A stretch of DNA of 64,000 nucleotides from Klebsiella phage phiKp_32: the sequence record LC768500.1; one strand, written 5' to 3'. This document shows, in pieces, positions 13,900 to 62,701 of the stretch. Under the pieces are notes generated by a model, which was not told where the DNA came from, did not search any database, and was given only the letters and a program-made list of their open reading frames with translations. Position numbers and translations under genes: made by a program. Every line of letters begins with the position of its first letter. The stretch's first letter is position 1.

Positions 13900-13936
13900 A
13901 ATAACTCCTACTCCCTTATCGGGAGTAGGAGTTATT
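13900..13936 (+). terminator. Hairpin family A: aataactcctactccc ttatc gggagtaggagttatt
   Basis: 16-bp perfect stem plus T-run. Near-identical copies at 24086, 37329 and 62665. Confidence 0.7.
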
Positions 13937-19035: not shown

Positions 19036-20172
19036 ATGTTTATTAGTAAACGGGGTAAACTCCGGCCACATAAATCCAATATTGAAATTATCGAACGGAC
19101 TTTCGGTTGTCGGAGATTTGTCTGGAATCAGTTATTAGGATTACATAAAGAGCAATATGAAAAATGGAAGGGGGATAATACTTTAGAAAAACCCAAATTA
19201 AGTTTAACACTGCTTAATAAAGAGCTCAATGAGCTCAAAATAACTCATTCTTGGTTAAATGAAGTAAGTGCCGTAGTTTTACAACAAAGCGTCAATGATC
19301 TTTATAGTGCTTTTCAAGGTTTCTTTAAGAGAGGCAAAGGTTACCCTAAATTTAAATCCAAAAGAGGAATTCAATCTTTTCGGTTTTCAGGTAGTCGGGA
19401 TATTCATGTCGACCACTCTAAAATCAGATTACCCAAATGCAATCATAAATCGGTAATTTCTAAAAACGTTATACTCAACGATCCTTCTTCCTATACCGTT
19501 ATTCGTGATCGGGTTGGCGATTATTTTATTTCCTTTGTTGACCAAATCGAAGAGATTGAACAAGAACCTGAAAGTAAGGGTAAGTTCGTCGGGGTTGATT
19601 TAGGGATCAAATCCTTGGCGGTTATTAAACACGTAAACGGTAAAGTAGAGGAAATAGAAAATCCTCAATTTTATCGTAAAGCTGAAAAACGTTTAAAGAC
19701 GTTATCCCGTCGTTTAAGTAAGAAACAGAAAGGGAGTAAGAATCGGAACAAAGCCAGAATTAAATTAGCTAAACACTGTCGAAAGATTGCTAATCAACGC
19801 AATGACTTTTTACATAAATTATCCACTCGATTAATTACCGAAAACCAAGGGATTAATATCGAAGATTTAAATGTAAAGGGGATGGTTAAGAATCATAACT
19901 TAGCGAAGTCGATTCAAGATGCGTCTTTCAGTATCTTAAAACAACAATTGATTTACAAAGCTAGCCGGTATATTAAACCTAAAGTGATTTGTCTTGTCGA
20001 TCGTTTTTATCCCAGTACTCAAATCTGCTCTCATTGTGGCGTTAAAAGTGAAGTGAAAATCAAACTTCACGTAAGAGAATGGACCTGTGGTCACTGCGGA
20101 ACGCATCACGATCGTGACATTAATGCGGCTACGAATATCCTTAACGAAGGATGTCGTTTAACTACTTCCTAG
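19036..20172 (+). mobile_element. tnpB: TnpB (IS200/IS605-family OrfB, IS1341-type, no tnpA): RuvC-like nuclease with zinc finger
   Basis: RuvC-I VGVDLGIKSLAV; RuvC-II INIEDLNVKGM; Zn finger CSHCG...CGHCG; RuvC-III HDRDINAATNIL; 378 aa intact. Confidence 0.85.
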
Positions 20173-24085: not shown

Positions 24086-24120
24086 TAACTCCTACTCCCT
24101 TATGGGAAGTAGGAGTTATA
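24086..24120 (+). terminator. Hairpin family A copy (taactcctactccc ttat gggaagtaggagttata)
   Basis: Near-identical to the 13900 hairpin. Confidence 0.65.
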
Positions 24121-24137
24121 CCATGACTTATTTTTTT

Positions 24138-30977: not shown

Positions 30978-31430
30978 ATGGCTAACGAATTCAACATTAA
31001 CGGTAAAAGTATCAATGTGCCTTCAGGCGCGTCCATCAGTTTCTCCAATGGCGAACTGTTAATTAACGGCAAACCTCCTTCAGAGATTGAGCCTGGTCAG
31101 AACATCACAGTTAATATCATTGTGCAGGGCTCTGCTACGAAAATCGATATCGGATCAGGGACTGTCACTGTCAATGGATCGGCCGGGGAAATAAAAACAG
31201 CATCCGGCAACGTCAATGTCCAAGGTAATTGCGAGGGTCAGATAACCACCGCATCGGGTGATGTGGATGTTGGCCAGGAAGCAAGAAACGGAATAAAAAC
31301 TGCTTCTGGTAACGTGACCGCAAAGACTATAAAGGGAAACGTTGAAACTTCTTCCGGAGATATTCAAGCTGATCAGATCGCCGGTAATGTTAAAACGACT
31401 TTCGGTACGATAAAACCCCCTCATGGATAA
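30978..31430 (+). CDS. Beta-solenoid repeat protein (bactofilin-like T-A-S-G-N-V repeats)
   Basis: Tandem ~13-14-aa units: IKTASGNVNVQGN / ITTASGDVDVGQE / IKTASGNVTAKTIKGN / VETSSGDIQADQIAGN. Confidence 0.45.
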   Translation: MANEFNINGKSINVPSGASISFSNGELLINGKPPSEIEPGQNITVNIIVQGSATKIDIGSGTVTVNGSAGEIKTASGNVNVQGNCEGQITTASGDVDVGQEARNGIKTASGNVTAKTIKGNVETSSGDIQADQIAGNVKTTFGTIKPPHG

Positions 31431-31447
31431 ACCATTTATACTCCTAC

Positions 31448-31479
31448 GGCTTAATCGCCGTAGGAGTATATTTAAACGG
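31448..31479 (+). terminator. Hairpin atactcctacggc ttaat cgccgtaggagtat
   Basis: TCCTAC-core inverted repeat followed by a T-rich tract. Confidence 0.6.
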
Positions 31480-31523
31480 TTATTTTTAGTTATTGAACTT
31501 CTCTTCCCTTTTAAGGATTATCT

Positions 31524-32387
31524 ATGAATTTTCAATCTTTGAAGAAACTCGTCGGCCCGATTGAGTTATCTTGCATATCCTTCTGTTTGCTATTTATGAT
31601 ATTTAATCTACCGGCGGCTCAGGAGTCGTGGTTAATCTCCGCGGTATGTTATTTGGCTTTATTGTTCTCTGCCAGTTGGTTATTCGAAGCGACAGGCTGT
31701 GTTCTGTGTTATAAAACGGAAGGCGGGTATGATGACAAACACGATCTAGAACATGTAGAGAACGTATTGCGCGCCGACCTTAGTTCTAAAGAGTGGTCTG
31801 CATTAACAGCGTGGCGAGTTCTAGTCGGGGTGGTTGTTCTGTTAGGGCTGGGAATATGGTACGGGGTGGGTTATTTCACCATGTTCTTTGCATCGCAGGG
31901 ATTAGGTTTGCTTGTCAAAACCTATTACGATGATTGGAAGAAAAACAACCAACCGTTATTAGAGAACGCCCGTAAAGAATTCCTTTTAGCTATTCAAGAT
32001 GAAGGTGCTATTCTCAGCGGGGCTGTTTTTATTAAAGGTCGGGGATCCTTCATTCTTAAGAAAGGATATAACGCGGCCGAATTTGACGCCATGCTAGATT
32101 GGTTAGATTTCGATTATGACCAAGAAGCATTAGAAGACGGATTCATGATGATCCAGGGCTTCTTCGAACTTCAAGACAACTATCAAATCCAGCGTTATTG
32201 GGATGGGGAAGTTGGAGAATGTTGGGTGGTATTTAAGTACCATGATTTAAGTACCATAACCGATCCGTTAACCTTATCGGCTGCGTTATTAACCGATAAT
32301 GAATTCGTAGAAGAATTCGAAGAATATCTTAAACAGCATCCAGAAGAAATAGGATTAGAAAATGAAACCGATCGAACCGGGCTGTAA
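31524..32387 (+). CDS. Membrane-anchored hypothetical protein (N-terminal TM helices, soluble C-term)
   Basis: Hydrophobic N-terminal 130 aa, then charged C-terminal domain. Confidence 0.5.
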   Translation: MNFQSLKKLVGPIELSCISFCLLFMIFNLPAAQESWLISAVCYLALLFSASWLFEATGCVLCYKTEGGYDDKHDLEHVENVLRADLSSKEWSALTAWRVLVGVVVLLGLGIWYGVGYFTMFFASQGLGLLVKTYYDDWKKNNQPLLENARKEFLLAIQDEGAILSGAVFIKGRGSFILKKGYNAAEFDAMLDWLDFDYDQEALEDGFMMIQGFFELQDNYQIQRYWDGEVGECWVVFKYHDLSTITDPLTLSAALLTDNEFVEEFEEYLKQHPEEIGLENETDRTGL

Positions 32388-32787
32388 ATGTGTTATTGTA
32401 GCTGACAAATATACTCCTGAGAATGTCGGTAAGGTCGTTACGGTTATAAATCGTTACGGTCAGGGAAGTTTCTTCATATTTAAATACCCCGACGGAATTA
32501 CCGCGGGCGGATCGATCGACTCTCCCGCTTGGAGTGTTGTCGAGCAAATTGCTATGAGACTCATACCGCACGGGTCCTCACCTCTGGTGGTTCGTCGCAT
32601 CGTCGATCTTTGCGGATCCAATGGGAAAATAAATGGGTTGGTGGGGGAACACAGACTTATGCGTATCGATGGGGAAGACTTCGACGATAATCCTTATCAG
32701 GAGAAGAAACCCGTCTCCGACACACTAACTGAATTACAAACAAAATGGTTGGAGTCCCCTCAGGTCTGGGACCAATTCTCTTCTTAA
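32362..32787 (+). CDS. Hypothetical protein
   Basis: 141-aa ORF overlapping the upstream gene end. Confidence 0.45.
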   Translation: MKPIEPGCKCVIVADKYTPENVGKVVTVINRYGQGSFFIFKYPDGITAGGSIDSPAWSVVEQIAMRLIPHGSSPLVVRRIVDLCGSNGKINGLVGEHRLMRIDGEDFDDNPYQEKKPVSDTLTELQTKWLESPQVWDQFSS

Positions 32788-32809
32788 TCACTTATTCTTT
32801 GGAGTCGCT

Positions 32810-33067
32810 ATGAATTTCTTATGGGCCTTTCTTGGGTTTTTACTTATTTCCATTGTTGTTACAGTGGTTCTGGAAGTTAAGCGAGCGGGCGGTAAACCTA
32901 TTCCTAAGTTATCGTGGAAGAAGGGATCCTTCCCAGCAATGCCTTTCATCTCCTTTATCTTTGGGTGTTTGTTGGGTCAATACCAGAATATCTGGGTCTG
33001 TTTAATTGGACTCGCTCTAGTCGTGGTGTTACTAAAAACTGACTTCTTCTTCGAAGAAAAAGACTGA
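32810..33067 (+). CDS. Small membrane protein (2 TM)
   Basis: MNFLWAFLGFLLISIVVTVVL and VCLIGLALVVVLL. Confidence 0.5.
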   Translation: MNFLWAFLGFLLISIVVTVVLEVKRAGGKPIPKLSWKKGSFPAMPFISFIFGCLLGQYQNIWVCLIGLALVVVLLKTDFFFEEKD

Positions 33068-33135
33068 CTCTATAGGGCTAGCAAAAGCTAGCCCTATATT
33101 ACTTTTATGAATACCCAACTTTAGGAATCAAAATC

Positions 33136-33717
33136 ATGATGAATCAATTAAAGGATTGGATCGATTACTCTTCTTACTGGAATACGTATAACCGTGTCCT
33201 TCTTCGTAAGGGAGGGATGTACACCGAACAGATCGAACTGGAGCTCACCCCAATTAACGACGAGTGGGACGAAGTTAAACTCTGTAAAATCCGTAAGCAT
33301 CGTACGAGCATGGGACCGGGGGATAAAATTAGTCATCATCTCCATCCTGACATCTTTGCATTGATGGAAGAGAAGCTAGGGTATTATTTAGCCCATTTCA
33401 TCTTTCACTACGATATCTACACTAAGCTAACCAATTACGATGCGAGAAGATACTGGTACTTGCTCGATCGCTATGTCTTTAATGGTGGAGGTGGGATACC
33501 TCTGGTGCTGATAGACCCAAACTTTGATTTGCTGAGAGAGGATTGGGCTAAAGGCACTTCCTCGGCGTACACTGATGCAAAACAACGCATTATGGATAAA
33601 TTGAACATAGGTTTAGATCAGGTCAACGATCTGAAATTTCACGACATTTTAAGGCGTTTAGACGCCAACGATCATACGCCGTTTAGAACGGGTGTCATGA
33701 GTTGGGCGGGGGTTTAA
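33136..33717 (+). CDS. Hypothetical protein
   Basis: 193-aa ORF with RBS module ctttaggaatcaaaatcatgatg. Confidence 0.5.
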   Translation: MMNQLKDWIDYSSYWNTYNRVLLRKGGMYTEQIELELTPINDEWDEVKLCKIRKHRTSMGPGDKISHHLHPDIFALMEEKLGYYLAHFIFHYDIYTKLTNYDARRYWYLLDRYVFNGGGGIPLVLIDPNFDLLREDWAKGTSSAYTDAKQRIMDKLNIGLDQVNDLKFHDILRRLDANDHTPFRTGVMSWAGV

Positions 33718-33720
33718 TAA

Positions 33721-33963
33721 ATGAATCTTTATTTAGTAGAAGATCGAGCTATAGATTATAACGATTACGACGCCTATGTCAGTGCGGTGGTCGCGGCAAG
33801 CTCCGAAGAAGAAGCGAGAGAAACCCGTCACGGCCATCCGGTTTTTAACCCAAATGTAAAAATCCACTGGGTGAGTGATAAAGAACAATTAGCCGTTCGT
33901 TTAATCGGAACCTGTATAGATGAACAGACCGGCGTTATCGACGCTGATTTTAATGCAGGTTGA
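33721..33963 (+). CDS. Hypothetical acidic protein
   Basis: 80-aa ORF directly after the upstream stop. Confidence 0.45.
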   Translation: MNLYLVEDRAIDYNDYDAYVSAVVAASSEEEARETRHGHPVFNPNVKIHWVSDKEQLAVRLIGTCIDEQTGVIDADFNAG

Positions 33964-34002
33964 TGTATTCACAGAAAATAAAATGTCGAATAGGAGTTGG
34001 TT

Positions 34003-34272
34003 ATGTCTAAAGTATCAGCCAGCCCAACAAAGAGTTTGGGGTTATTGGTTGAAATCAAATCATTAATCAATGATGAACCATGTGCATCCGCCGAAGTCAT
34101 TGAGACTGACCTGGGGTGGATTGTTGAGTTTAAAACCAAAGCCGGTGTGAAGGTACTTGCTTCTACAAGAAATCCGTATCACCCCAAACTTTACAATTCC
34201 CCCAATGCAGCTTTGAATACGATCAAGTCTCTGGGCCTAGCCGAGACTAAAGTATTTTTTCTTAAGTCTTAG
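34003..34272 (+). CDS. Small protein, paralog A of a tandem pair
   Basis: ...ETDLGWIVEFKTKAGVKVLASTRNPYHPKLY...KVFFLKS; ATG at 34003 after taggagttggtt. The ORF-track start at 33997 is a TTG. Confidence 0.5.
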   Translation: MSKVSASPTKSLGLLVEIKSLINDEPCASAEVIETDLGWIVEFKTKAGVKVLASTRNPYHPKLYNSPNAALNTIKSLGLAETKVFFLKS

Positions 34273-34302
34273 GATCCAGGCTAGGTTTATTAAGGAAAGC
34301 AA

Positions 34303-34578
34303 ATGGCAGATACGTCAGAAATCATTATCACCAGAACGTTCGCTCAGTTAAAAGAACTTCGGATAATGATCAGCCGTAAATTGGTTAAGTCGGCTTCTTT
34401 GGTTGAAACTACAGAGGGATGGTCAGTAGAGTTCAAAACTGAATACGGAGATAGGATATTCTCTTCGTCAAAGAATGCGTACTATCCAAAGACCTTTAAA
34501 GGATTTACAGCGCCCATCAAAATGCTGAGAAAGATGGGATTTGACGAAGTAAAGCTGGTATTTCTAAAAGCCAAATGA
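34303..34578 (+). CDS. Small protein, paralog B of a tandem pair
   Basis: ...ETTEGWSVEFKTEYGDRIFSSSKNAYYPKTF...KLVFLKAK, alignable with 34003-34272. Confidence 0.5.
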   Translation: MADTSEIIITRTFAQLKELRIMISRKLVKSASLVETTEGWSVEFKTEYGDRIFSSSKNAYYPKTFKGFTAPIKMLRKMGFDEVKLVFLKAK

Positions 34579-34599
34579 TATTAATTTAGGAGAAATGAA

Positions 34600-34926
34600 A
34601 TGAAAGTAACAATCCAAGTGCTGGAAGACAGAGAAGTCGATATTATCGAGGCCTTAGAAAAAAGTTTGTTCGTCCCCCATTTCTATTTCGTGCATCGGGG
34701 GCGGGATAAAGGAGAATTCTTAGGGGAGGATGACGATTCTATTTTGATCATCTCACAGGAGTTGGTTGATTGTTGTCCTGAACTGGTCGTATTGGAATGC
34801 GGGGATTTGGAAAAACTATGTTTCTCCCAACGACGCACCAAAACCGAAAAAGAGGTTATTATCGAATACCTCAAAGCCAATCGAGAAAAGATTATCAAAG
34901 TCACTGACTTGCCGGGGTACTATTAA
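34600..34926 (+). CDS. Acidic hypothetical protein
   Basis: 108-aa ORF, RBS tttaggagaaatgaaATG. Confidence 0.45.
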   Translation: MKVTIQVLEDREVDIIEALEKSLFVPHFYFVHRGRDKGEFLGEDDDSILIISQELVDCCPELVVLECGDLEKLCFSQRRTKTEKEVIIEYLKANREKIIKVTDLPGYY

Positions 34927-35300
34927 TGTTAAAAAATCGTCCTGGGGTAATCGTTACTCATACCGACGCATCTTCTGCTCACGGTTGGATCGATCTGCTG
35001 ATTCGTGATCTCGACGATAAGAACGTTGAGACGCGATTCTGTATCTGCACCCCAACAAACCACAAGTTGGTTCATTTACTGGGCGAACCAGATGACTGCG
35101 TGCTGGAAATCTCCCAATGGAAACGAGACTCCCCGTATAACGTGGGTTATTTAGGAGCGCCGGAAATAAAGGGGTGTGAGCTTTCCGACGAAGAACTTCG
35201 TTCGTATGTGAAAGAGCACTCGGATAAAATTATTGATATCAATCTCGCGCTGGTTTTAACAAATGGGGGTGATTATGACGGCTCGTTATTTTGCCGGTGA
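34926..35300 (+). CDS. Hypothetical protein
   Basis: 124-aa ORF, start overlaps the upstream stop. Confidence 0.45.
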   Translation: MLKNRPGVIVTHTDASSAHGWIDLLIRDLDDKNVETRFCICTPTNHKLVHLLGEPDDCVLEISQWKRDSPYNVGYLGAPEIKGCELSDEELRSYVKEHSDKIIDINLALVLTNGGDYDGSLFCR

Positions 35301-35808
35301 TCTGCACTTAGGTGATCCTTCGATCATCAAATACCGTAAGCAGTTTAAAACGGTAAAGGAGCACGATGAATTTATCGCCGATACGATTTTGGTTAAACCT
35401 CGTGATCACGACGTGCTAACCATCGTGGGTGACGGATTCATTAAACCCGAATCGCTGTTCATCCTGAAGAAATTCCCGTATAAGAAACATCTTATCCCAG
35501 GGAATCACTGTATGGAGAAAGGCGTTAAAGTTACTGATCTCGCTGCTTTCTTCGACGTTGTTACCGGATCGTTTAAATGGAAGAGTGGGTTCTTCGTATC
35601 CCATGAACCTCAGCATCCTAATCATCTCCGAGGCCGCATCAATATTCACGCTCATTTGCATGATAAAGTAATCGAAGACGAACGTTATATCGGAGTGTCA
35701 TTAGAACAAACCGGTTATCGTTTAATCCATCACGATGAGATCTTATCTGGTTCTTATCGTACTTATCGCAAACCAACTCTTGAAGACCATTTACATTTAG
35801 GAGAATAG
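35263..35808 (+). CDS. Calcineurin-like metallophosphoesterase
   Basis: GDLHLGD, VGDGF and GNHC motifs in the order of phosphoesterase motifs I-III. Confidence 0.5.
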   Translation: MGVIMTARYFAGDLHLGDPSIIKYRKQFKTVKEHDEFIADTILVKPRDHDVLTIVGDGFIKPESLFILKKFPYKKHLIPGNHCMEKGVKVTDLAAFFDVVTGSFKWKSGFFVSHEPQHPNHLRGRINIHAHLHDKVIEDERYIGVSLEQTGYRLIHHDEILSGSYRTYRKPTLEDHLHLGE

Positions 35809-35810
35809 CC

Positions 35811-36101
35811 ATGGCTCGTAAACCTTCTACCGTAGGCGAGATTATTAAGAAAGAGTATCTCGAACCGATGAACATGAGTATGATGGAACTCTGCCGTCGG
35901 ACTCATTCAAGTAAGGGCGCTATTTTCCATCTGCTTAGCGGGAGCAATCGTCTGAGTATTGAGATGGCGTTTAAACTCGCTAAACTCTTCAACACAACTG
36001 AAGAGTTTTGGCTGAACCTTCAGCGGCAAGTAGATCTTTACGAAGCCAAACGGAATAAAGAACTTAAAGCGACCTTAAAGAAAATTACCCCCGTTGAGTA
36101 G
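35811..36101 (+). CDS. HigA/VapI-like antitoxin-family HTH protein (XRE type), no HigB partner
   Basis: MARKPSTVGEIIKKEYLEPMNMS...LAKLFNTTEEFWLNLQRQVDLYEA matches the HigA pattern P..GE.L..E.LEP.......LA..fg...EFWLNLQ..DL. Confidence 0.75.
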   Translation: MARKPSTVGEIIKKEYLEPMNMSMMELCRRTHSSKGAIFHLLSGSNRLSIEMAFKLAKLFNTTEEFWLNLQRQVDLYEAKRNKELKATLKKITPVE

Positions 36102-36128
36102 ACCGGGTAATAATTTATTTTTAGGAGA

Positions 36129-36671
36129 ATGATGATGATCAATTGTTTAGAACCCAACGAGTTCGCTCAGTTTAAAGCACAGTGGGATAAATATTTCGAG
36201 GAGGGTCTTCCCGGACTCGATGAAAGAATGAAGGGTCCGATGCTGATCCTGAACGCAATACCCGGGGTAGCGACCCGCTTTTGTTGTTCCGGTCATACCT
36301 TTGAAGAAAGGTTATCGTCCCACCCGACCAAAGCGTATTCTCGCGTACAGAAAAGGAACTTCATTTTTGTCGTTGAAGAAGGTCATGCTGATATTTTCTT
36401 TGCGTTTGAGATACTCTTCAAATTATTGAACAAAGACGAGTTTAGTTTTTGCCGGCCTTCTTTAGAAACCACTCTGCTCAAGAAAAACTTCGGTGAGTCG
36501 GAAACCTATCCGGTTTGGGTATTCGAAATGAATTGGGTTTACGAACTCACCGAGGAAGAAAAAATAAAGGGAAGGGATAAGACCCAGAACGAACTCTGGG
36601 AGAAACTCCTCAGAGGACTGTTCCTGATCACCGATCCTGAGACCCGTCATAAGCATCAGGAGTTACTCTAG
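36129..36671 (+). CDS. Hypothetical protein
   Basis: 180-aa ORF, RBS tttttaggagaatgatgatg. Confidence 0.5.
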   Translation: MMMINCLEPNEFAQFKAQWDKYFEEGLPGLDERMKGPMLILNAIPGVATRFCCSGHTFEERLSSHPTKAYSRVQKRNFIFVVEEGHADIFFAFEILFKLLNKDEFSFCRPSLETTLLKKNFGESETYPVWVFEMNWVYELTEEEKIKGRDKTQNELWEKLLRGLFLITDPETRHKHQELL

Positions 36672-36806
36672 TCTCTTCGATATTTAGCAAAGCAACAGTT
36701 CTCTTGTTAAGATAAATAAATGATGTAATGGTATGGCCTGTCGGCCTAGGTGGGGGTAGCCTTGTGGATTACTCTCATTCCTCTCGTAAATGTTGGAGAA
36801 ATAAAA

Positions 36807-37322
36807 ATGGCTAAAGAAAACGTTGTTCGTATTCCACTGTATAATTTAGGTAATCTTTCCTGCGTAGGGTATCGAGAAGGGTGTGGGTATAACGTTAAGG
36901 TTTATTGGGGTGATTATCTGCTGGCCTCTAAACCTAATCTCACTCAAGCGCTCGACTTCGCTTATATCGGAGTTCGACTCTTCTCCCCGACCCACAGTGA
37001 ATGGTTAACCAACGATCTGCGCTTAACTATTTGTGAATCGTTGATAAAAGCCCGTTTATTAATTGACGGTAATCATAGCGTAGAGCGTTCTTCTGTTCTT
37101 TCGGAGGGTTTCCTTAAGCATTGGAAAACAGACGAATCCGGAGTAGACTATTATCTGGAAGTACGTCTTGCTAGAGATCCAGGTAAAATAGAAGACGACA
37201 TCGTTCAAGTCACCTTAAAGTACGACAACGACGGGTGTAGTCTCACTCATAGCTTCAAGAAATACGCTTCCGTTTTCAACTATAAAAAGCATTTAGGTCT
37301 TTTCAAACAAGTTACCTATTGA
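36807..37322 (+). CDS. Hypothetical protein
   Basis: Start at MAKENVVRIP after ggagaaataaaaATG. Confidence 0.5.
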   Translation: MAKENVVRIPLYNLGNLSCVGYREGCGYNVKVYWGDYLLASKPNLTQALDFAYIGVRLFSPTHSEWLTNDLRLTICESLIKARLLIDGNHSVERSSVLSEGFLKHWKTDESGVDYYLEVRLARDPGKIEDDIVQVTLKYDNDGCSLTHSFKKYASVFNYKKHLGLFKQVTY

Positions 37323-37328
37323 GCCAAT

Positions 37329-37364
37329 CTAACTCCTACTCCCTTATCGGGAGTAGGAGTTATT
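37329..37364 (+). terminator. Hairpin family A copy (ctaactcctactccc ttatc gggagtaggagttattg)
   Basis: Identical core to the 13900 copy. Confidence 0.7.
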
Positions 37365-37437
37365 GCACATGTAAATAAAAACAGACCTGTATTATCTTTA
37401 TGTAGAACAATCCATAACCTTTTTAGGAGCAAATAAC

Positions 37438-37740
37438 ATGAACGTCTATTTAGTTAAACCGATGGAATTTACTGGCGATGAAGATATCAACGGCATGGTG
37501 GTAGTGGCAGAAAACAGTGTTGCCGCGCTCCTCACCCATCCTCATGTGGACGAGGACGGGAATTCATTTGAATGGGTACGGGATACGGATTCAGAAAACG
37601 GGGCGTGGGTTGATGAAGAAGGTCGAACAGATATCTTCCATGGTTGTGGGTGGCCAGCACCACATCGGTTACACTGTGTTCTGTTGGGCGTAGCCGCTGA
37701 CGGGATGGAAGAAGGCATCGTGTTGGTCGATCGCGATTAA
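37438..37740 (+). CDS. Acidic hypothetical protein
   Basis: 100-aa ORF, RBS ctttttaggagcaaataacatg. Confidence 0.5.
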   Translation: MNVYLVKPMEFTGDEDINGMVVVAENSVAALLTHPHVDEDGNSFEWVRDTDSENGAWVDEEGRTDIFHGCGWPAPHRLHCVLLGVAADGMEEGIVLVDRD

Positions 37741-37750
37741 GGGGTAGAAT

Positions 37751-38272
37751 ATGAAAGTTGTTAGATTTGGTAATGTAACCGTCAATAAAGATAATAAACT
37801 GGAGATCGCCCGATTTAATTTCTCCAGTGCGTATGACGGCGAACCAGTCACCCCGGCAGGGATGATTAAAGCTATCGTAAACTGTCTTAATGATTACGTT
37901 GGTAAGACGGATGGGATGTTCAGCCCCGTTAAGGATCTAAGTGGCTCGCCACTTCTAATGGGGTCAAACATTCCAAAAGATCAGTCGGTGTTAATGATTC
38001 CCGACGGCACCCTGGCTTTAGCCGAACTGGATCCTCCTGTCTTTAGCACCAACGAATACACGTTCTTAGAAGTAGAAGAACGCGTTTATCAGCTCATAGC
38101 GATGCAAATAGGTATAACACTCACTACCGAAATGGGCGTCATTCCTGGGTCGGTTGAACTGATTGATGTGGATGACTCTCGTCCACATCCCGACAATGTC
38201 GTAGGTTACTGCCTGACATTAGAAAATCCACCGCGGTATTTCTTGAAAGTTAAGAATAAAGGAGTTCGGTAA
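37751..38272 (+). CDS. Hypothetical protein
   Basis: 173-aa ORF. Confidence 0.5.
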   Translation: MKVVRFGNVTVNKDNKLEIARFNFSSAYDGEPVTPAGMIKAIVNCLNDYVGKTDGMFSPVKDLSGSPLLMGSNIPKDQSVLMIPDGTLALAELDPPVFSTNEYTFLEVEERVYQLIAMQIGITLTTEMGVIPGSVELIDVDDSRPHPDNVVGYCLTLENPPRYFLKVKNKGVR

Positions 38273-39057
38273 TGTTAGAGACCCAGCTTAAAGATCGCCT
38301 GACCATCCTGAACACTTTCGAATGGTTTACCTACTTCTGGAATAAATTCCAGGAAGGCATGTATGATGTAAGGCGAACCATGCATAGCGCGTCGGTTGCG
38401 ATTAATAACGGCGATTGTGCGGTAGCCGCTTTAGCGGTAAGTTCCGTTTTGAATCGTCGACTGGATGTTAACGTTGGAATGGCTCGCAATACTCTTCACG
38501 CCTGGGTCACTATCGGCAACGATATCTTTGATACCGAATTTCCAACGGGACACGATATAGCGAGTTTTAAATCTCGTTGGGGCGATCGTATCAGTGAGGT
38601 GGTTTTAACGCCTGAGACTCTCGTAGAAGAGTTTATGCCGTGCGATTTGGTAGGCGCCTATCTTGTAAAAGAATTTTGCGGGACAATGGGCGAGGTGCAT
38701 CCTAAAGAAATCGATTTTCTTCTGACCAACCCTACCGAATATGAATCTCAGGAAGGGATTAGTAAAATCGGAAAGGCTCTCGCATTTGCAGTAGAAGAAA
38801 CCCTGAAAGCCCGCAGGACAGTAACGACTATCAAACACGAGTCTTACTTCACTGCCAAAGAAGCCACGATGGATCATGAGCTCAAAGATCATGTCAGGGA
38901 TATCTATTCCGGTATTCTGATCTGCGTACTGGTGGATAAGAACGATCACAAAGTGATCGGAGAGTCTTATCACAAAGGACCAGAAACAGAACGCACGCTA
39001 CTGGCGAGATCCAGAGCTAAGTTTATTGCTCTGGATAAACTTAGAGACGTGGTGTGA
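38272..39057 (+). CDS. Protein with transglutaminase-like / papain-fold cysteine peptidase core
   Basis: NGDCAVAALA ... HAWVTIGNDIFD resembles the Cys-His-Asp core (G.C..FA / HAWxE) of transglutaminase-like proteases. Confidence 0.4.
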   Translation: MLETQLKDRLTILNTFEWFTYFWNKFQEGMYDVRRTMHSASVAINNGDCAVAALAVSSVLNRRLDVNVGMARNTLHAWVTIGNDIFDTEFPTGHDIASFKSRWGDRISEVVLTPETLVEEFMPCDLVGAYLVKEFCGTMGEVHPKEIDFLLTNPTEYESQEGISKIGKALAFAVEETLKARRTVTTIKHESYFTAKEATMDHELKDHVRDIYSGILICVLVDKNDHKVIGESYHKGPETERTLLARSRAKFIALDKLRDVV

Positions 39058-54635: not shown

Positions 54636-54723
54636 CTTCCATAATTTTTTAAATCGATATTATTTAAGTGTCTCAAACAAAAACTTTTTAGGTTGTTTTA
54701 ACATCACTTAGGAGTACGCCCGT

Positions 54724-55098
54724 ATGCGTTATCAACATTTTTCTATCGCCTCTTCCAAAGAAGCATTTTCCATTCGTCTTTCTTACATCCTGCAACATCT
54801 GAACAAAACAGAAACTCAGCGCTCCATCGCGGAGTATTGTGGGGTGAGTACGAGCACCATCTCCGCCATCTGCAACGAGCACGTCCAGTACGTATCCCTC
54901 AATACGCTGATGAAAATCGCGGATAAACTGAAACTTAACTACGAGGTTGTCTTTAAAGGCAATCGCGGTAAAGTGAGTAACTTTGTTACCGTTGAATCCG
55001 CCGTGGATTACATGAAGCTCGGCAAGTTGAACCCCGTTCGTAAAAATGTGATGAAGGGTAACTCCCCCGCATTTAAAGGACGGGTGGCGACGCATTAA
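54724..55098 (+). CDS. XRE/Cro-like HTH transcriptional regulator
   Basis: ETQRSIAEYCGVSTSTISAICN...VSLNTLMKIADKLKL (helix-turn-helix with the characteristic GVS.STIS). Confidence 0.55.
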   Translation: MRYQHFSIASSKEAFSIRLSYILQHLNKTETQRSIAEYCGVSTSTISAICNEHVQYVSLNTLMKIADKLKLNYEVVFKGNRGKVSNFVTVESAVDYMKLGKLNPVRKNVMKGNSPAFKGRVATH

Positions 55099-55159
55099 TC
55101 ATGGTGGGAGTCCGCAAGGGCTCCCACGCTATTTATTAATTTATTTTTTAGGATAAAAC

Positions 55160-62664: not shown

Positions 62665-62701
62665 AATAACTCCTACTCCCGATAAGGGAGTAGGAGTTAT
62701 T
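62665..62701 (+). terminator. Hairpin family A copy with inverted loop (aataactcctactccc gataa gggagtaggagttatt)
   Basis: Same 16-bp stem as 13900, but the loop is the reverse complement (gataa vs ttatc), so the element is inserted in the opposite orientation. Confidence 0.7.

Follow-up and report, generated by a model that had tools for sequence, protein, structure and literature searches.

What use would a lytic phage have for an antitoxin with no toxin gene beside it? The question is raised by an open reading frame (ORF) for a HigA-family helix-turn-helix (HTH) protein of 96 amino acids, found in a stretch of 64,000 nucleotides from Klebsiella phage phiKp_32 (GenBank accession number LC768500.1), which is referred to below as the window. 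The reading ranked first, with a probability of about 40%, is that this protein may serve as a stand-alone antitoxin acting on host HigB-type mRNA-cutting toxins. Its main rival, placed second and likewise tentative, is a DNA-binding regulator. The gene was characterized using family profiles, fold prediction and the ratio of nonsynonymous to synonymous substitution rates (dN/dS).

35811 to 36101, plus strand: orphan HigA-family HTH protein, 96 amino acids

Identification of a HigA-family protein in phiKp_32

A first-pass annotation of the window had described the ORF at 35811 to 36101 as HigA/VapI-type, and this description holds; the ORF is real, lies on the plus strand, and carries the motifs KPSTVGEIIKKEYLEP...KLAKLFNTTEEFWLNLQRQVDLYEA in its translation. 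The NCBIfam profile TIGR02607 (antidote_HigA) matched the protein with 79.7 bits (E value, 1e-22; cut-off, 47.7) and the Pfam profile HTH_3 (PF01381) with 33.7 bits (cut-off, 23), and the protein also matched phrog_1381 (E value, 3.5e-23). Its best solved relative was Escherichia coli YbaQ (PDB 2eby), with 79 bits across residues 2 to 93. AlphaFold2 predicted five helices with a predicted local distance difference test (pLDDT) score of 90.6: α1 (residues 8 to 20), α2 (24 to 31), α3 (35 to 43, the recognition helix), α4 (50 to 59) and α5 (64 to 92). The first 41 PDB fold matches returned by Foldseek for this model were of the HigA family throughout, with template modeling (TM) scores of 0.72 to 0.86. 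The modeled five-helix HTH fold can be superposed on solved HigA structures, confirming family membership, and the TIGR02607 score together with the PDB fold matches sets the phage protein closer to genuine antitoxins than to XRE regulators in general.

The HigA annotation of this gene is already present in GenBank and PHROGs. The 100% identical NCBI protein, from a 251,460-bp contig, is entered as 'HigA family addiction module antitoxin [Klebsiella phage phiKp_32]', and lytic phages with orphan antitoxin homologues are a known category. A search of the literature on phage HigA function turned up no work on an orphan HigA. A word-index protein search returned only seven relatives of HigA and five of the neighboring phosphoesterase. 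When a recent host donor was sought among 1.84 billion representatives, no bacterial or plasmid HigA exceeded 46% identity to the phage protein, and HigA genes of Klebsiella plasmids reached about 42% at most. The top non-phage matches among these representatives were proteins of ∼380 to 410 amino acids containing four tandem HigA-like HTH domains (P0014 to P0019 and others), one of which is named 'addiction module HigA family antidote' by the Joint Genome Institute.

Search for a HigB toxin in phiKp_32 and other phages

For comparison with bacteria, the 80 loci most similar to phage HigA were assembled, taking one genome per species, all ≤46% identical to it. A PF05015 HigB gene lay directly upstream of HigA in 51 of these 80, the toxin-first higB-higA layout. 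A hidden Markov model (HMM) made from these 51 bona fide HigB sequences found no match in the six-frame translation of the window (best E value, 1.3), in the whole 257,087-bp genome of the closest complete relative, Raoultella phage VB_ZK_P1 (best E value, 0.33), or in six-frame translations of related phage loci. Pfam scans likewise detected no RelE/ParE/HigB match with an E value below about 0.05 in the 46 small window ORFs (≤150 amino acids), and no hidden HigB among the 25 strongest families listed for 99 window ORFs. The statement of the first-pass annotation that no HigB/RelE-like toxin precedes HigA was therefore correct, the upstream gene being a metallophosphoesterase, and it extends to the whole window and to the genome of the relative. 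A cognate HigB-type toxin paired with HigA from elsewhere in the genome, which would have spoken against its orphan status, was found in neither.

The orphan state is shared with other large phages in IMG/VR and GenBank. A tblastn search with Enterobacter HigB against 50,697 phage records matched no jumbo phage; HigA relatives were found in 106 GenBank phage records, with a HigB match in only six, none of them jumbo. The plasmid-prophage D6 carries a complete HigB and HigA pair. In IMG/VR, none of nine contigs of ≥100 kb with a HigA relative had HigB within 2.5 kb, whereas HigB lay directly upstream in 62 of 71 smaller contigs, which are apparently mostly prophage-like. Given this split, the orphan claim is not only correct but general, and a HigA without HigB is a property of large lytic phages. 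Such a pattern, with large phages holding HigA without HigB and small contigs holding the full pair, would be expected if a lytic phage gained from the antitoxin alone.

Over about half of a 4-kb query, the window shared 95.6% nucleotide identity with Klebsiella phage Miami, and over 86% of such a query it shared 91.8% with VB_ZK_P1. The genus Miamivirus has been transferred by the ICTV to the nucleus-forming family Chimalliviridae (PMC12451628). phiKp_32, a Miamivirus, probably belongs to this family; a Pfam search did not find chimallin among the VB_ZK_P1 candidates. Orphan HigA homologues were identified in the Chimalliviridae genera Miamivirus, Maaswegvirus, Meadowvirus and Agricanvirus, and also in the nucleus-forming phage PCH45 and in ICP1. 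None of the small ORFs upstream of HigA in AH04, PCH45 and RAY was HigB-like.

Selection on HigA and variability of its recognition helix

Across four phages, HigA gave dN/dS values of 0.09 to 0.27, indicative of purifying selection and thus of a functional gene. These values bear on the proposal that HigA is a decaying passenger without current function. The gene is missing in phage KPN8, highly diverged in the metagenomic contig L097 and set in mosaic surroundings, as a passenger might be, but every carrier retains the complete ORF, free of frameshifts and stops, and its fold is modeled with confidence; together with the dN/dS values this makes decay very unlikely.

In contig L097, the 108-amino-acid flanking protein, the phosphoesterase and the 180-amino-acid protein encoded downstream are 91 to 93% identical to those of the window, and HigA is 55% identical. 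HigA thus sits in a hypervariable cassette between conserved flanks. This location and the absence of HigA from KPN8 are typical of accessory, conflict-type genes rather than of a core regulator. Two features of the locus are as follows.

35907 to 35951, plus strand: HigA codons 33 to 47 (recognition helix and the loop after it), a substitution hot spot in the orthologue alignment
36129 to 36671, plus strand: 180-amino-acid protein with an RFCCSGH motif (phrog_7413), the gene directly 3′ of HigA

The 180-amino-acid gene was directly downstream of HigA in four of the six HigA carriers examined (phiKp_32, VB_ZK_P1, YC1 and L097, not Miami). Its product is 91 to 98% conserved in VB_ZK_P1 and L097, even beside the 55%-identical HigA.

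In residues 33 to 47, eight HigA orthologues (each ≥84% identical) differed at 10 of 15 positions, compared with 18 of 81 elsewhere (Fisher P of about 0.001). The ratio of nonsynonymous to synonymous polymorphism (pN/pS) was 0.23 to 1.0 in these codons versus 0.10 to 0.21 in the rest of the gene, as calculated from small counts in five informative orthologue pairs. Helices α1, α4 and α5 are nearly invariant and the recognition helix is the most variable part, with at least five alleles (KGAIFHLLSGSN, NAAISRLLSGNT, KGAIFHLINGKN, NAAISRLLSGSN and KGGVSHLLSGNI). Either relaxed or diversifying selection on this helix could produce the codon counts. Taken together, the variable recognition helix, the conserved remainder and the hypervariable cassette lean weakly toward a protein-binding role for HigA. 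The same alleles, occurring among near-identical proteins, could be read as changing operator specificity by a DNA-binding regulator; however, regulators with conserved targets normally keep their recognition helix, which in HigA is the least conserved part.

The neighboring metallophosphoesterase and the gene order around HigA

The gene preceding HigA was considered as a possible functional partner. Its features, and the gene orders found in related phages, are listed here.

35263 to 35808 (181 amino acids) or 35275 to 35808 (177 amino acids), plus strand: metallophosphoesterase of calcineurin-like fold (from phrog_547, motifs and fold)
35800 to 35805, plus strand: Shine-Dalgarno-like GGAGAA, read from the sequence, 5 nucleotides before the HigA ATG and present in Miami too
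phiKp_32, Miami and BUCTxx100: phosphoesterase and HigA adjoining
YC1 and contig L097: phosphoesterase, 121-amino-acid gene, 76-amino-acid gene, HigA
VB_ZK_P1: 124- and 76-amino-acid genes before an intact HigA; phosphoesterase residues 57 to 125 replaced by a TnpB gene
KPN8: phosphoesterase followed by an unrelated 86-amino-acid ORF; no HigA

A calcineurin-like phosphoesterase had been recognized previously from GDLHLGD, GDGF and GNHC in the 181-amino-acid ORF. The match to phrog_547 (E value, 2.8e-40), the metal-binding residues (D13xH15, G56D57, G80N81H82, H114 and H129xH131) and the fold all agree, although the start given at 35263 is less likely than the ATG at 35275 (MTARYF..., as in Miami and KPN8). 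The metal-binding motifs are invariant in the alignment, with GNHC replacing GNHD in the phiKp_32 phosphoesterase clade. The nearest folds were Aquifex AQ665 (1xm7; TM score, 0.70), a Pseudomonas putida nuclease metallophosphoesterase and Mre11. Pfam returned no match to the window protein at an E value below 0.1, PF00149 not being reached; PF00149 is recorded for the homologue P0011. The dN/dS values of the phosphoesterase were 0.03 to 0.09.

If the phosphoesterase and HigA formed a functional pair, whether as a toxin-antitoxin-like module or as an enzyme with a dedicated regulator, their tight junction would be meaningful. The phosphoesterase occupies the position of the toxin in higBA, the Shine-Dalgarno-like GGAGAA falls within its 3′ end, and the same junction is found in Miami and BUCTxx100. 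The gap measures 2 nucleotides (TAG cc ATG) rather than the four first reported. Yet gaps of ≤5 nucleotides separate 22 of the 89 same-strand neighbor pairs of the window, so the translational coupling claimed in the first-pass annotation is nothing special here. The two genes standing between the pair in YC1 and L097, the interrupted phosphoesterase beside an intact HigA in VB_ZK_P1, and the phosphoesterase of KPN8 with an unrelated ORF after it all argue against a joint function. Downstream of the phosphoesterase homologues in other phage contigs (39 to 60% identity), no HTH domain was recorded for any gene. Members of the phosphoesterase family were present in 1022 phage records, and among these are lineages (T5-like, N4-like and Staphylococcus phages) for which no HigA relative was listed. 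Because tight gaps are ordinary in this genome and the neighborhood differs between phages, the link between the two genes is incidental. A functional tie is not supported, and with the module largely refuted by the mosaic neighborhoods and the wide distribution of the phosphoesterase without HigA, this is the least probable of the explanations considered. The direct junction in the window looks like a derived state in which two intervening genes were deleted, since YC1 and L097 keep two genes between the pair, while VB_ZK_P1, KPN8 and the distribution of the family uncouple it.

One of those intervening genes suggests a different partner. In VB_ZK_P1, YC1 and the metagenomic contig L097, a 76-amino-acid ORF lies 11 to 12 nucleotides upstream of HigA, the place of HigB in higBA, and is 78 to 97% conserved among these three relatives (L097:4758-4988, L091:3259-3489 and L094:2949-3179). 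It is preceded by a variable ORF of 121 to 124 amino acids (phrog_27588). Since antitoxins of the HTH type (Xre family) have known partners of several unrelated toxin folds, HigA could be the antitoxin or immunity partner of an unrecognized, non-HigB phage toxin such as this one. The 76-amino-acid ORF, however, has a weak match to phrog_36159, is not HigB-like by HMM and matches no toxin family. It was absent from the window by tblastn and is also absent from the HigA loci of Miami and BUCTxx100; HigA nevertheless shows a dN/dS of 0.19 between phiKp_32 and Miami, both of which lack the upstream gene. With the lack of RelE/ParE/HigB matches among the small window ORFs described above, a partnership of this kind is unlikely, though better placed than passenger status.

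The TnpB gene in VB_ZK_P1 has counterparts elsewhere. The window itself contains a TnpB/IS605-OrfB (Cas12f-like) gene at 19036 to 20172 on the plus strand (PF01385 and PF07282), and VB_ZK_P1 has three copies (174309 to 175448, about 82185 to 83316, and 203854 to 204993) that share 72 to 83% nucleotide identity with each other. Three copies, one of which replaces part of the phosphoesterase, point to a Chimalliviridae genome in which a mobile element is, or recently was, active.

Transcription unit and its signals

HigA is embedded in a tightly packed run of genes, which was examined for signals that could reveal autoregulation or expression class.

33136 to 37322, plus strand: 10 closely packed genes, bounded by strong hairpin terminators at both ends; the phosphoesterase is gene 7 and HigA gene 8
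33071 to 33098, plus strand: 12-bp inverted repeat without mismatches and a T-rich tract after it, probable terminator hairpin of the upstream unit
33095 to 33111, plus strand: promoter-like motif TATATTACTTTTATGAA, about 25 nucleotides before the first gene of the unit and also in Miami
37330 to 37362, plus strand: perfect 14-bp hairpin terminator ending the unit, one copy of a repeated hairpin

The eight other genes of the unit matched no known function. The hairpin at 33071 to 33098 overlaps the start of the promoter-like motif and was considered as a HigA operator. In the Miami version of the stem, GG..CC is changed to AC..GT; such compensatory changes favor an RNA terminator hairpin over a conserved protein operator and count against this candidate. 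Within the motif TATATTACTTTTATGAA lie a TATG element and TATATTAC, the early consensus published for phiKZ. The 17-nucleotide form of the motif does not hold as a consensus across the genome, and the most enriched upstream 8-mer is ATTTTATG, so an 'early' label for the unit based on TATATTAC was dropped. The most enriched upstream 8-mers of VB_ZK_P1 include CCTACTCC and AGGAGTTA. The terminator at 37330 to 37362 has the form TAACTCCTACTCCC-N5-GGGAGTAGGAGTTA, which recurs with minor variants at about 13902 to 13934, about 24100 to 24132 and 62668 to 62700; the hairpins after these several units are one repeated terminator sequence and not independent hairpins.

These signals bear most directly on the regulator, which would retain the XRE-type HTH function only and would repress or modulate specific promoters. 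These might belong to the host chromosome (host takeover) or to the phage, the second case including an Aca-like repressor of the variable small genes upstream. Its HTH_3 domain is intact, and operators are bound by the family members YbaQ, PaHigA, GraA and PvHigA according to their PDB entries; YbaQ was also part of a ChIP-exo motif analysis (PMC6237786). In the relatives a conserved HTH gene follows variable small ORFs of 121, 76 and 86 amino acids, an arrangement that resembles anti-CRISPR (acr)-aca loci. Set against this, HigA has no promoter region of its own, being the eighth gene of ten with 2 nucleotides upstream of it, and the sole palindrome at the start of the unit behaves as a terminator stem. 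KPN8 manages without HigA, and judging from Chimalliviridae biology a protein regulating phage DNA would have to be imported into the phage nucleus. A regulator would also leave unexplained why a HigA-type protein was recruited with constant loss of HigB in large lytic phages. For the host and phage targets jointly, this account is accorded a possible but less than even standing, behind the stand-alone antitoxin.

Anti-defense families gave no match to the genes upstream of HigA, known anti-CRISPR databases not having been searched. A Tad2-like Thoeris anti-defense domain (PF11195; E value, 8.8e-14) was detected in one of the 46 window ORFs of ≤150 amino acids; this ORF lies outside the HigA transcription unit and not within 30978 to 39057. 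Guilt by association was accordingly set aside for HigA, its unit holding no anti-defense family and the Tad2-like ORF lying elsewhere. A candidate second small HTH protein, recognized by eye from its XRE-type-looking sequence (...TQRSIAEYCGVSTSTISAICNE...), may be encoded at ∼54720 to 55100 on the plus strand, within a region (54636 to 55159) that the ORF picker gave to a minus-strand ORF.

Proposed action on host toxins

The preferred explanation, a stand-alone antitoxin, supposes that the gene was captured from a bacterial higBA module without its toxin and kept as an accessory gene of a nucleus-forming jumbo phage. HigA protein would be made in the cytoplasm during infection and would form the usual HigA dimer. 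We infer that a conserved surface outside the recognition helix would then bind host HigB/RelE-type ribosome-dependent mRNA endonucleases, freed when infection stops the supply of labile host antitoxin. Phage mRNAs, which in this family are translated in the cytoplasm outside the phage nucleus, would thereby be protected. The work of Malone et al. in 2020 reportedly found that nucleus-forming phages stay exposed to RNA-targeting immunity. As the HTH is intact, some DNA binding may persist beside the antitoxin role.

Several precedents are available. YbaQ is reportedly essential in E. coli strains with higB-1 upstream, and its knockdown strongly overexpresses higB-1 (bioRxiv 10.1101/2020.05.25.114553). 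Abortive infection by HigB toxins has been reported for the HigBAC system (PMC11980606). Structures of the Proteus vulgaris HigBA-operator complex have HigA holding HigB and DNA simultaneously (PMC12266136), which implies that the toxin-binding and DNA-reading surfaces are distinct. Orphan antitoxin homologues are proven counter-defenses of phages, namely T4 AdfN against DarTG (PMC11825919) and a chimallivirus DarG2-like protein, also against DarTG (PMC13309987). It is on the YbaQ, HigBAC and DarTG precedents, the loss of HigB in large phages, the cassette and the conservation pattern that a decoy against HigB is ranked ahead of the DNA-binding regulator.

A number of points weigh against a decoy. 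A type II antitoxin usually acts on its cognate toxin alone, and given the low identity of phage HigA to any bacterial HigA (≤46%) and to those of Klebsiella plasmids (≤∼42%), no host target can be named; the low identity also argues against simple mimicry of a host antitoxin. The HTH scores above its Pfam threshold, and the fold would suit a role in DNA binding alone equally well. The variability of the recognition helix, measured on small codon counts, could be a switching of DNA specificity rather than relaxed constraint. The timing of expression is a further point, since the motif at 33095 is not a consensus found genome-wide and no expression class was assigned. Finally, no known anti-defense gene was found in the transcription unit of HigA (33136 to 37322).

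Comparison with known systems

YbaQ is the closest characterized structure, having the same five-helix fold and size as phage HigA (Foldseek TM score, 0.83; 42 to 43% identity), and in K-12 it is itself toxin-less. It differs in being a chromosomal bacterial gene, whereas phage HigA has no promoter of its own and no toxin was found for it in the window or in VB_ZK_P1. In phylogroup B2/F strains YbaQ lies downstream of higB-1 and is reported to control its expression, being an orphan elsewhere (bioRxiv 10.1101/2020.05.25.114553). The HigBA modules of P. vulgaris Rts1 (HigBA), P. aeruginosa (HigA/PA4674) and P. putida (GraTA) share the antitoxin family and fold with phage HigA; unlike them, the phage gene has no HigB and is embedded in a 10-gene phage transcription unit. 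An autoregulated operator of the HigBA kind was not found, there being no promoter directly upstream of phage HigA and only the terminator-like palindrome at the start of the unit.

The phrog_1381 homologues of large lytic phages (FBKp24 gp197, AH04 gp81, RAY gp94, PCH45, phiR1-37 g308/g309 and ICP1/JSF14) are 31 to 48% identical to phage HigA and have no HigB nearby, several of these phages being Chimalliviridae. Their neighbors differ in each case, and their architecture also varies; FBKp24 gp197 (L003:2075-2797) has 240 amino acids, with the HigA domain C-terminal to a 140-amino-acid N-terminal extension, phiR1-37 g308-g309 (L006:2084-2800) are two tandem HigA-like genes, and RAY gp94 lacks the end of helix 5. 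No characterized member of these orphans was found in the literature searched.

T4 AdfN (a DarG1-like NADAR protein), the chimallivirus DarG2-like protein, the ICP1 DarG mimic and T4 Dmd are likewise antitoxins or mimics without a toxin. Of these, T4 Dmd shares no homology with the antitoxins whose place it takes. The phiKp_32 gene resembles this group in that a virulent phage carries a HigA under selection without a toxin. DarG-like proteins, however, are enzymes that undo the modification made by the toxin and so do not need binding specificity at the level of a cognate pair, whereas a HigA decoy would need to bind its toxin stoichiometrically.

Aca repressors offer a third comparison. Like phage HigA, they are small HTH proteins encoded in accessory regions, conserved in their place after small phage genes that vary. 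An aca gene is the last of a short operon that has its own strong promoter with inverted-repeat operators, and an anti-defense gene lies upstream of it. Phage HigA departs from this arrangement, being the eighth gene of ten with two genes after it, and having neither a dedicated promoter nor a conserved operator, nor an upstream gene matched to an anti-defense family.

Implications for nucleus-forming phages

Should the DNA-binding regulator prove correct instead, phage HigA would be an ordinary XRE-type accessory gene. The locus provides natural comparisons in KPN8, which has no HigA, in L097 with its 55%-identical allele, and in VB_ZK_P1 with its broken phosphoesterase. A broader and more doubtful proposal is that nucleus-forming jumbo phages, whose DNA is shielded and whose mRNA is not, use toxin-less HigA proteins as fast-diversifying decoys against host HigB/RelE mRNA interferases, with the cassette from the phosphoesterase to the 180-amino-acid gene forming an anti-defense island. 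Phage HigA would then be the first type II antitoxin (stoichiometric and HTH-type) derived by homology and shown to serve a virulent phage in counter-defense. If the decoy reading is true, orphan-antitoxin counter-defense would extend from enzymatic, DarG-like proteins to classical type II binders. This reading would have a bearing on the choice of therapeutic Klebsiella jumbo phages, and would identify what keeps RNase toxins from the cytoplasmic mRNA that nucleus-forming phages leave exposed.

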